From IMG/VR virus record IMGVR_UViG_2734482571_000007: DNA of 39,690 nucleotides; one strand, 5' to 3'. How positions within the stretch are numbered: position 1 is the stretch's first letter; every line of letters starts with the position of its first letter. Shown here piece by piece: positions 2,556-4,610 of this stretch. The notes beneath the pieces were generated by a model that saw only the letters and a program-made list of their open reading frames with translations, had not been told where the DNA came from and searched no databases. Source of the stretch: a virus (taxonomy: Duplodnaviria > Heunggongvirae > Uroviricota > Caudoviricetes). The position numbers were made by a program, and so were the translations under genes.

Positions 2556-4610
2556 TTACGCGTTATTCACTTCCACCACGATACTGTCAATCAGTACCGG
2601 GTAAGTCGCATTTTTAGTGATATCGGTCACGCGCAACTTGTCTGCCGTAAACGTGCCGACCGGAGACTGCGACAGCATGAATGGTGTCCCGTCCTTACCA
2701 TCAATGACCGGCGTCACCTCAATACTGTTGTTACCGGCAAAACGGAAGCCCAGCGTATGCCATTCGTTATTAAATGCGCCGAATGACCCCAGCTTCGTGT
2801 TCTGCGCCGTGTTTCCTTTGTGATACATCACGTTAAGGTCTGTGGCATCGCTCTGTACGTAGAACGATGCCAGCAGGTTATGACCGGCATTTCCTTCCAG
2901 AGTAACCCCTTGCGGCAGGGCAGAAACCGGCCAGTACAGCGCCAGTGCGTACTGATTAGCCGTAAGCGCGCCATCGAGTTTAAAACGACAACTGACAAGA
3001 CCACCTTTACCCAGCAGGTCCGCACCATTACCAGCATCATGCTCAAGGTACCAGGGGGCTCTTCCTGTTTCCTTGGTCAGTTTCATTGCCTTACCCCCGC
3101 TGGCTCCGGCATCATCCACGATTTGAGCCTTGCCACCTCCGGCAGCCCAACCCTGTGGTGTCAACCGTCCTTCAGACTCAGATGCCCGGTAAGCAAATAG
3201 CGTACTCATCGTCGTGGTGTCTGCGGGTGGCGTGGACGGTTTTGATGGTGTATCAGGTGACGGCTTCTCATCCGGTGGTGTCACGGTCTGCCCACGCATC
3301 AGTTCAGCCGTGCGCCCTGCATGGAGCATAATAGCTGAGGCCAGACGGTCTGAAATGACGCCCCTGCGTGCCCATGAGCTGAAATGGCTGTCACGCTGTG
3401 TCGAAACAAAACTGCCCTGGGTTCGGGATGCTGCACCGTAATACCCGACAGCCACAATATCCGGGTCTTCCGCCGGAGCATTCGTTGGCGTGCTCTGTCC
3501 ATTCTCATCCGTCAGGAACGGTACAAAGAAAATTTTCTGTGCTTCCTTGCCTTTGTAGCCACCGTATACTGCCTCATATTTATCGGTGCCAGCGTTTTTC
3601 CAGTAATACGTGGTATCACCGCAAATCCACGGCACCGTGGTGGCATTTCCACTCACGCACTGCGCAGCAAGCGGAGCCAGGTCAGTTCTGAACTGCTGAA
3701 CCATGGCCGTGAATAAACTATTATGCTGCTGGCTTCCTGAGGCAAGGTCTGCCTCTCCCTGCATCCAGACCACAGCCAGAAGTTTGTTTTTCGGGTTTTT
3801 CGCCAGCGCGACTTTGGTGCGGCTTACCAGGTCCTGATACAGAGGTTTACCGGCCCCCCAGCGTGAAGAATCAGCGGAAGCACCGCTGGCCTCACTGAAT
3901 GAGCCGTCGGCTCCAGTGGTGAATGCTGACCCGCCACGACAACAGGGCACCAGAAGTATCCCGGCATTCTGTGGGATATAGGGAAGCAGTTTTTTGGCAA
4001 TATGCAACCCCTGACCGACAGTCCCGTACTGGCCTTTTGCCAGATCAGCTTTCGGGTGGTTTATCCCGCTCATATCCTGAACATCATGCAGGCAGTGGTC
4101 TGCCGGAATGATGTCGTTGTATGTACACGACGTACCGTTGGGCGTTACCGTACTGCGGCGTGCCAGTTGCTTAATGCGTGGGTCCGGGCGGTCAAACGAA
4201 TCCGGTAACGGCAGCCCCTCGCCGTAGGCCATGCCATTTGACTGACCCGCGAGAATGACAACAAAGTAATATTCCGGCTCTGAACTGCTGCCATTCGTGC
4301 TACCGGAAGGCCCGGCGTTATCCGGTGCATTCCAGTCGGAGGGCGTGAGCGTTCCGGCCACGTCAGATGTGATTGGAATGATGCCAGTCACGCCTGAACT
4401 GGTGATTTCTGCACTGGGATTACCGGATACCGGCATTACCCATAATGGCTCTTTCGTGCTGAAGCGGATCACGCAGTCTGCGAAGGTGATCCCCCCTTTA
4501 TTACCCGAAGGGCGGAAAGGGCTTTCAATAAATGCCACCGTGCCACCGGCAACCTTGACTGAAAACTCTCCGGGCATGGCGGAGAGCATTTTCCACTTGG
4601 AGTCTGACAT
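2556..4610 (-). CDS. SGNH/SASA-family carbohydrate O-acetylesterase (sialate O-acetylesterase-like, NanS-p-like) with Pro/Thr linker and C-terminal lectin-like domain, 684 aa
   Basis: ILAGQSNGMAYGEG motif (GQSN esterase block I) about 115 aa in; PT-rich linker (TPPDEKPSPDTPSKPSTPP); about 230-aa C-terminal beta-rich domain; no signal peptide. Located between gin and com where Mu has no gene. Confidence 0.7.
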   Translation of the reverse strand: MSDSKWKMLSAMPGEFSVKVAGGTVAFIESPFRPSGNKGGITFADCVIRFSTKEPLWVMPVSGNPSAEITSSGVTGIIPITSDVAGTLTPSDWNAPDNAGPSGSTNGSSSEPEYYFVVILAGQSNGMAYGEGLPLPDSFDRPDPRIKQLARRSTVTPNGTSCTYNDIIPADHCLHDVQDMSGINHPKADLAKGQYGTVGQGLHIAKKLLPYIPQNAGILLVPCCRGGSAFTTGADGSFSEASGASADSSRWGAGKPLYQDLVSRTKVALAKNPKNKLLAVVWMQGEADLASGSQQHNSLFTAMVQQFRTDLAPLAAQCVSGNATTVPWICGDTTYYWKNAGTDKYEAVYGGYKGKEAQKIFFVPFLTDENGQSTPTNAPAEDPDIVAVGYYGAASRTQGSFVSTQRDSHFSSWARRGVISDRLASAIMLHAGRTAELMRGQTVTPPDEKPSPDTPSKPSTPPADTTTMSTLFAYRASESEGRLTPQGWAAGGGKAQIVDDAGASGGKAMKLTKETGRAPWYLEHDAGNGADLLGKGGLVSCRFKLDGALTANQYALALYWPVSALPQGVTLEGNAGHNLLASFYVQSDATDLNVMYHKGNTAQNTKLGSFGAFNNEWHTLGFRFAGNNSIEVTPVIDGKDGTPFMLSQSPVGTFTADKLRVTDITKNATYPVLIDSIVVEVNNA

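Follow-up and report, generated by a model that had tools for sequence, protein, structure and literature searches.

A NanS-p-family esterase with a replaced N-terminal module between gin and com of Mu-like phages of Escherichia coli and Salmonella

Lambdoid and Shiga toxin (Stx) phages encode sialate O-acetylesterases of the NanS-p family, including those of 933W (L0105/z1466) and phi24B (vb_24B_21/gp84), which belong to PHROG 143. These proteins combine an N-terminal DUF1737 domain (~55 amino acid residues, one alpha helix and three beta strands) with a SASA/SGNH catalytic domain, a Pro/Thr linker and a DUF6645 jelly roll; they have no signal peptide, and their genes lie between Q/stx and the holin gene S. 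Here we describe a gene of this family found between gin and com of a transposable Mu-like myovirus, in a viral DNA stretch of 39,690 nucleotides (IMG/VR record IMGVR_UViG_2734482571_000007), hereafter called the window. Sequence comparison indicates that in its product an unrelated module of ~95 residues, kept by selection, has taken the place of DUF1737, with the switch falling precisely at the domain boundary.

Prophage NanS-p enzymes of enterohaemorrhagic E. coli (EHEC) de-O-acetylate both 5-N-acetyl-9-O-acetylneuraminic acid (Neu5,9Ac2) and the sialic acids of mucin, and they allow growth on Neu5,9Ac2 (PMC8065619). By opening O-acetylated mucin sialic acids to catabolism, they are considered fitness- and virulence-associated factors of these pathogens. 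In Stx phages, genes for DUF826 and DUF1378 proteins sit between nanS-p and S (PMC10462455). The phi24B enzyme, gp84, has been reported as an abundant virion protein whose DUF1737 domain binds central capsid hexons as a hexamer and whose linkers are slowly cleaved (bioRxiv 10.64898/2026.04.10.717836). NanS-type esterases are also found in a second group of non-lambdoid temperate myoviruses, the P2-like Peduoviridae (P88-like PV468777, vB_EcoM-569R5); unlike the Mu-type protein with its orphan module next to gin, these keep DUF1737 (PF08410, E=1.4e-7) and adjoin lysis genes. NanS of E. coli (YjhS, 3PT5) has a homologous catalytic domain with the same variant SGNH blocks, but it is a single domain of ~330 residues (the 3PT5 chain has 337) that lacks the N-terminal module, the linkers and the lectin domain; its gene presumably lies within the nanCMS sialic-acid operon. 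The right end of phage Mu has gin, com and mom in the same order and orientation as the window, with a recognisable Dam-site cluster upstream of com. However, the gap between gin (35092-35673) and com (35768) in Mu is 94 bp and holds no gene, as the original prediction, a reading of the window's sequence made without database searches, had stated. The window has ~3.4 kb extra at this place, comprising a three-gene cassette and a low-GC slot with an ORF (open reading frame) of 97 residues.

The esterase and its N-terminal module

The esterase gene is an intact ORF with an ATG start that encodes 684 residues and is flanked by gin and com, as had been proposed from the sequence. It is divided as follows.

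2556..4610, minus strand: the esterase gene, a Mu-type variant of the nanS-p-type sialate O-acetylesterase genes, 684 residues (SASA and DUF6645 profiles, phrog_143, 3PT5, 6YP6)
4326..4610, minus strand: N-terminal module, residues 1 to ~95, orphan and all-beta, in place of DUF1737
4275..4325, minus strand: linker 1, residues ~96-112, rich in Ser, Gly and Asn; predicted local distance difference test (pLDDT) below 50; the 5' edge of lambdoid homology lies here, at 4280
3321..4274, minus strand: SASA/SGNH catalytic domain, residues ~113-430, delimited by 58% identity to 3PT5, its sequence blocks and its low substitution ratio (given below)
3207..3320, minus strand: linker 2, residues ~431-468, rich in Pro, Thr and Ser and recognised from its sequence; its length differs among relatives
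2556..3206, minus strand: C-terminal lectin-like jelly-roll domain (DUF6645), residues 469-684, after 6YP6

Homology makes membership of the protein in the NanS-p enzyme family secure. The original prediction had described a NanS-p-like SGNH esterase with a GQSN block, a Pro/Thr-rich linker and a lectin-like, beta-rich C-terminus, and each of these parts is present: ILAGQSNGMAYGEG occupies residues 119-132, with GQSN at 122-125, the linker at residues ~440-468 reads TVTPPDEKPSPDTPSKPSTPPADTTTMST, and the beta-rich domain covers residues 469-684. The SGNH/SASA match on which that proposal depended was obtained with the Pfam profile PF03629 (residues 117-312; E=1.5e-13; 51.3 bits, the gathering threshold being 24.8), and the DUF6645 profile PF20350 matched residues 533-650 (E=7.4e-68). 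Residues 71-684 match phrog_143 (E=1.7e-296), and residues ~110-684 are 84-91% identical to some lambdoid and Stx members of the family. Among solved structures, residues 110-428 are 58% identical to E. coli NanS/YjhS (3PT5; 315 aligned residues, E=1.8e-117), and residues 469-683 are 69% identical to the C-terminal domain of phi24B NanS-p (6YP6; E=7e-98). Four SGNH-type blocks, GQSN122, CCRGGS223, WMQGE282 and RDSH406 (residues 406-409), are invariant in both alignments that we built (A1 and A2), save D407, which is nearly invariant. They follow the block pattern of NanS and NanS-p except in block IV, which is RSSH or RASH in that pattern (PMC10462455). In the lectin-like domain, Y554, Y559, Y584 and F654 correspond to phi24B Y510, Y515, Y540 and F611, the proposed aromatic sugar site (PMC10462455). 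We infer the activity of the window's esterase from this homology: very probably it is an active sialate 9-O-acetylesterase of the NanS-p family, built from an SGNH/SASA domain and a lectin-like jelly roll and encoded by the first gene of a cassette that lambdoid and Stx phages have in their late region.

The predicted absence of a signal peptide also held, insofar as no signal-peptide-like hydrophobic core was seen in the first 60 residues (maximal Kyte-Doolittle value 1.65 in an 11-residue window; no dedicated predictor was run). A full-length AF2 model based on 18 close homologues had a mean pLDDT of 35 and was set aside as unusable. The Ser-His(-Asp) geometry of the catalytic site may be presumed only indirectly, from the 58% identity to solved NanS (3PT5). 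NCBIfam and PADLOC gave no meaningful match for the esterase or for the DUF1378 and DUF826 proteins encoded next to it. RefSeq labels the esterase as “DUF6645 domain-containing protein”, and relatives from its cluster are labelled elsewhere as “sialate O-acetylesterase”.

Relatives retrieved by full-length searches fall into two types. The first, ~22 clusters of 678-691 residues, covers the whole query and lacks PF08410; the second bears DUF1737, is 647-650 residues long and aligns at 84-91% identity over the C-terminal ~86% only. The junction between the shared and unshared parts of the alignment is sharp and falls at EPEYY(F/Y)VV..AGQSNG. DUF1737 had been expected as a possible part of the window's protein, but PF08410 matched neither the whole esterase nor its residues 1-109, even at E<=10; the lambdoid and P2-like esterases used as positive controls did match. 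The esterase is therefore a variant of the NanS-p architecture and not its canonical three-domain form: the sequence features of the enzymatic domains are in place, and two canonical features, DUF1737 and the lambdoid position, are absent. Shared invariant columns in the MAFFT alignment A1 had hinted at distant homology between the N-terminal module and DUF1737; given an hhalign probability of 0.1% and a shuffle z of ~0, these were dismissed as an artefact of the alignment.

The N-terminal module is a near-orphan. An exhaustive phmmer search against 1.84 billion representatives returned its own fragments and one homologue from Salmonella (30% identity); two further matches, to a cysteine-rich tandem-repeat protein and to a low-complexity protein, were judged spurious on inspection. 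A scan of genome contigs yielded nothing for the module, probably because the species-representative genomes lack the prophage. In every case the module is attached to a SASA esterase, and wherever the flanks are readable, in E. coli and in Salmonella, the carrier is a Mu-like phage. The predicted model is compact, all-beta and barrel-like, with a disordered linker after it, and its best fold matches are cupin-like small barrels. Within the lineage of the window (lineage 1), the ratio of non-synonymous to synonymous substitution rates (dN/dS) of the module is 0.03-0.20 at dS 0.09-0.39, so that it is constrained as strongly as the SASA domain (0.09-0.14) and the lectin domain (0.12-0.15). The linkers are less constrained, with values up to 0.84-1.19 for linker 1 and of 0.14-0.37 for linker 2. 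The low ratio of the module therefore points to a selected, folded domain.

The cassette, its distribution and exchange with lambdoid phages

The esterase had been taken for a lone cargo gene. It is instead the first of three co-oriented genes, followed by a DUF1378 gene and a DUF826 gene, which the original prediction had missed. The flanking features, all on the minus strand, are as follows.

4696..5268, minus strand: gin, with Resolvase and HTH_7 matches, upstream of the esterase gene
4611..4695, minus strand: gin-esterase intergenic region of 85 bp, with conserved blocks
2229..2423, minus strand: gene for a small DUF1378 membrane protein, 60 residues by the RefSeq start (PF07125, E=1.2e-31; phrog_494)
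1939..2193, minus strand: DUF826 gene, 84 residues, with an acidic C-terminus (PF05696, E=6.4e-16; phrog_311)
1021..1266, minus strand: com, downstream of the esterase gene
330..1262, minus strand: mom, downstream of the esterase gene

The prophage in the window looks complete and Mu-like and lies on the minus strand; Pfam profiles recognise MuA, MuB, Portal_Mu, Mu F, gpI, the major head protein gpT, the sheath and the tape measure protein. These Mu-type transposition and head genes (portal, F, I and T) leave the phage context clear, as do gin, com, mom, the tail-fibre and assembly genes of the G segment and the differing insertion sites. We compared the locus with 34 IMG/VR contigs, annotated E. 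coli genomes and a Mu-like phage (Mu_JNE082796) inserted in the Stx phage LC727881. All genes that fall within a contig follow one order, which begins with the tail-fibre assembly gene (G segment either way round) and runs through gin, esterase, DUF1378, DUF826 and a variable slot to com and mom. The DUF1378 gene, whose product has one strong transmembrane segment (Kyte-Doolittle value 2.27 over 19 residues), follows the esterase gene in lambdoid loci and in 34 of 37 Mu-type loci; in the remaining three the contig ends. Of these 34 Mu-type loci, 32 had DUF826 next by tblastn, and two had a different small ORF there. The Salmonella homologue stands after Mu-type baseplate and tail-fibre genes and gin, and its locus keeps the same order up to the contig end. 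The cassette is thus fixed between gin and com in a lineage of Mu-like transposable phages of E. coli and Salmonella.

Of 5,426 complete E. coli genomes, 28 contained DNA specific to the module of lineage 1 and 205 that of lineage 2 (~4% together), and the carriers of lineage 2 include many O157:H7 and other E. coli that produce Shiga toxin (STEC). To call the setting unusual for a Mu-like phage, as had been done, was therefore an overstatement, all the more as P2-like phages carry NanS-type esterases too. Insertion sites differ between genomes (a diguanylate-cyclase gene in strain HH35, the lateral flagellar gene flgL in M3), which fits transposition. A resemblance to Sakai Sp18 has been stated for the Mu-like phages of CC119, among them the insert in LC727881 (PMC10132054). 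The enzyme, its lectin domain and its DUF1378 and DUF826 neighbours are already known from lambdoid and Stx phages, and the gene itself is present in public annotation. In the open-access literature we found neither a NanS-p cassette described as a fixed feature of Mu-like phages nor a non-homologous replacement of DUF1737, and nothing that links Mu-like phages or Sp18 with NanS.

Window positions 4280 to 2278 are 87% identical over 2,008 bp (blastn) to a lambdoid prophage (L038) with the gene order Q, methylase, nanS-p, DUF1378, small ORF, holin, lysozyme. The lambdoid-homologous segment begins at about codon 110 of the esterase gene and stops inside DUF1378. The part of the esterase downstream of the module, its body, has more than one lambdoid relationship. 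One lambdoid group matches the lineage-1 body at 84-93% identity; the lineage-2 body is 81% (SASA) and 95% (C-terminal domain) identical to NanS-p of Stx2a phages, whereas the two Mu-type bodies share only 69% and 74% identity in the same domains. In lineage 3 (L035, 7986..10043; L032, 4245..6326) the SASA domain is 64-72% and the DUF6645 C-terminal domain 35-50% identical to all others, and the latter divergence hints at different glycan-binding specificities. As the bodies do not track the N-terminal module, intragenic recombination must have swapped them with lambdoid genes on more than one occasion. A neutral reason for the module to stay with the Mu-like phages would be the lack of homology upstream of the gene, which confines crossovers to the body. 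The steady pairing of DUF1378 and DUF826 with the esterase in two unrelated phage backbones suggests that these two genes have a functional tie to the esterase, not to lambdoid lysis.

About ten related loci (L002, L008-L011, L013, L016, L022-L024) have no gin and keep the esterase cassette intact; with gin lost, their G segment is frozen. Among the loci with gin, the tail-fibre assembly gene occurs in both orientations, consistent with active inversion.

Possible roles of the esterase and its module

The explanation that we favour, and to which as a whole we lean with some reservation, joins the enzyme and its cassette to delivery by the phage and docking by the N-terminal module. The esterase very probably acts on mucin glycans and strips Neu5,9Ac2-type sialic acids of their O-acetyl groups, as lambdoid NanS-p has been shown to do, and it would reach them only via the phage lytic cycle, either free or attached to the particle. 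Since the N-terminus does not resemble a signal peptide, access to the outside would come only through phage-induced lysis, and both locations named in the original prediction, on the virion or released by lysis, are still live. The N-terminal module would serve in docking or oligomerisation and fasten the esterase to the Mu-type particle, with the two flexible linkers allowing its display and possibly its later release. Because the DUF1737 anchor of phi24B is replaced here by a conserved, Mu-restricted module, docking to the Mu particle is the most attractive reading of this module; by analogy, a role in docking or oligomerisation is plausible, although we put it somewhat below an even chance. 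The wider proposal, that the module is specifically a virion-docking domain of Mu-type phages and that one esterase-lectin body has been fitted independently to unrelated temperate phages, is somewhat less likely still. If it were true, podoviruses of the phi24B type (through DUF1737) and myoviruses of the Mu type (through the N-terminal module) would independently mount the same exchangeable body, DUF1378 and DUF826 would be co-travelling accessory factors, and phages of gut E. coli would have the de-acetylation of mucin glycans as a modular and general function of their virions, more than a trait of lysogenic conversion.

A number of observations weigh against this explanation. The idea of an anchor is taken by analogy from a single preprint (bioRxiv 10.64898/2026.04.10.717836), and esterases of the DUF1737 type also occur in P2-like myoviruses, so that DUF1737 is not tied to one capsid type. 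The fold matches of the N-terminal module are generic, it has no paralogue elsewhere in the prophage, structural proteins included, and its restriction to Mu-like phages can be explained without function, by the lack of upstream homology. We found no experiment or proteome for any Mu-type phage, and no Mu-type isolate in the phage collection searched; esterase activity and substrate are accordingly read from homology, and presence in the virion from analogy. Block IV of the esterase is RDSH, as against RSSH or RASH in the characterised enzymes (PMC10462455), and a scan of positions 1200-5500 for sigma-70 promoters and terminators gave counts at chance.

Nearly as likely as docking is a free, soluble enzyme of lysogenic conversion, a “public good” that would stay in the cytoplasm, be made at a low level together with gin in the lysogen or at induction, and be released by lysis of a fraction of the cells, after which the surviving lysogens would grow on O-acetylated sialic acids. 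The N-terminal module would then be a second glycan-binding or oligomerisation domain without any link to the virion, and cupin-like small barrels often do dimerise or bind ligands. A role of this kind is the established interpretation for lambdoid NanS-p, which gives a growth advantage on Neu5,9Ac2 and de-O-acetylates mucin (PMC8065619); the position of the gene in the accessory right end by gin and mom, outside the head and tail modules, agrees with it, as do the missing structural paralogue and the fact that missing upstream homology alone accounts for the co-segregation of the module with the Mu backbone. Set against it are the abundance reported for gp84 of phi24B, a member of the same family, in the virion, and the precise replacement of the reported anchor domain under strong purifying selection over 30-60% divergence, which suggests a phage-specific role of the N-terminus. 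The two possibilities are not exclusive, as a virion-bound enzyme could be released by cleavage of its linkers.

We consider it improbable that the esterase aids adsorption, sitting on the particle or tail and de-O-acetylating O-antigen, K1-type polysialic-acid capsule or other surface glycans so as to open the lipopolysaccharide core to the Mu-type tail fibres. Such a role has been raised for NanS-p (PMC8065619), the gene directly follows the invertible tail-fibre (G) segment and gin, the SASA region has a weak PHROG match to a “tail protein” family (phrog_25867, E=1.2e-6), and the C-terminal lectin domains vary widely between lineages in the manner of receptor-binding modules (35-50% identity in lineage 3). 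However, chromosomal NanS, with which the catalytic domain shares 58% identity, is an enzyme of sialic-acid catabolism, close relatives act on free Neu5,9Ac2 and mucin (PMC8065619), the same body is found in phages with different receptors (lambdoid podo- and siphoviruses, P2-like phages), and we found no tail-attachment motif in the protein and no likeness to the tail or baseplate proteins of the prophage. The last alternative, a decaying and non-functional passenger that a fortuitous exchange with a lambdoid prophage left behind, is all but ruled out by the selection data. Mu-like and lambdoid prophages do coexist and even nest (LC727881; PMC10132054), and some copies are disrupted (a 523-residue ORF in L029, a gap in SASA in L021), but most of the 37 Mu-type loci and ~233 genomes have an unbroken ORF, dN/dS is 0.03-0.20 in every domain, the catalytic and binding residues are conserved, and three lineages at 58-74% identity keep one architecture.

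While the enzymology of the esterase is ordinary, the domain swap and the capsid-anchor result together give a sharp, testable hypothesis. The replacement of DUF1737 amounts to a natural experiment on the role of the N-terminus and makes a prediction that can be tested on Mu-type particles. It also bears on surveys of pathogens. Counts of nanS-p alleles have so far focused on lambdoid prophages, and a Mu-like family present in ~4% of complete E. coli genomes matters for such counting; screens based on DUF1737 would miss the Mu-type esterase, which is mostly annotated under the DUF6645 label.

Expression signals and minor features of the locus

The spacer between gin and the esterase gene contains two blocks, TGAATT..CGCAAAA and CTGTTTAATTCAGAAACAGG, that are conserved across three lineages. 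An inverted repeat, CTGTT(T)...(A)AACAG, lies upstream of the esterase start (~4617..4636, minus strand), over the likely Shine-Dalgarno sequence, and is present in the three lineages. The folding z scores for this hairpin are weak (-1.6 to -2.0), and the lineages differ in their predicted folds; translational control through the repeat is possible but unsupported. In the gin-deleted variants, the intact esterase gene adjoins a divergently oriented tail-fibre assembly gene, which suggests a promoter near the gene, or read-through.

A candidate late-promoter site for the Mu C protein, TTATGCGGGAATAA at positions 2205-2218, resembles TTATGCCCCAATAA of Mu Pmom and overlaps the DUF826 ribosome-binding site. 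It was rejected, being broken in close relatives, absent in lineages 2 and 3 and matched in 26% of shuffles. Directly after the DUF1378 stop codon there is a hairpin, AGCCCTG-ATTG-CAGGGCT, followed by TTTATT (~2205..2228, minus strand); lineage 2 has a different one, CCCCG...CGGGG, at the DUF1378-DUF826 spacer.

Between DUF826 and com, an ORF of 97 residues (1478..1771) lies on the plus strand, opposite to its neighbours, in a patch of 36-40% GC (~1250-1800). It had no match in Pfam, PHROG, NCBIfam or PADLOC and is present in only some of the related loci, and the DUF826-com spacing ranges from ~450 to 950 bp. This low-GC stretch looks like a variable moron slot. Upstream of com, a cluster of three to four GATC Dam sites is kept as in Mu, and the Mu C-site sequence is not. 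The mom ORF called mechanically (310 residues, GTG start) overlaps com by ~240 nt; the RefSeq versions of both are shorter (mom 245 residues, com 66).

The lineage-2 Mu-like phage inserted in LC727881, an Stx2c phage, has no mom and carries after com the gene of a C-5 cytosine DNA methyltransferase (L003, 9420..10472; PF00145, E=2e-42), which provides a different DNA-modification module under the leader of com. Among the other lineage-2 loci, most retain mom; L027 and L033 are also without a mom match. Among the P2-like phages, the records L045 (PV468777, 1..1464) and L042 (vB_EcoM-569R5) start or end within the DUF1737-SASA gene, which is cut by a prophage boundary or by the record start.

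The first ~200 bases of the window (1..~210) appear to be host DNA. Strain HH35 is identical (100%) to window positions 1300-5300, and its prophage interrupts the diguanylate cyclase gene; the window probably derives from the same insertion or from an identical one.

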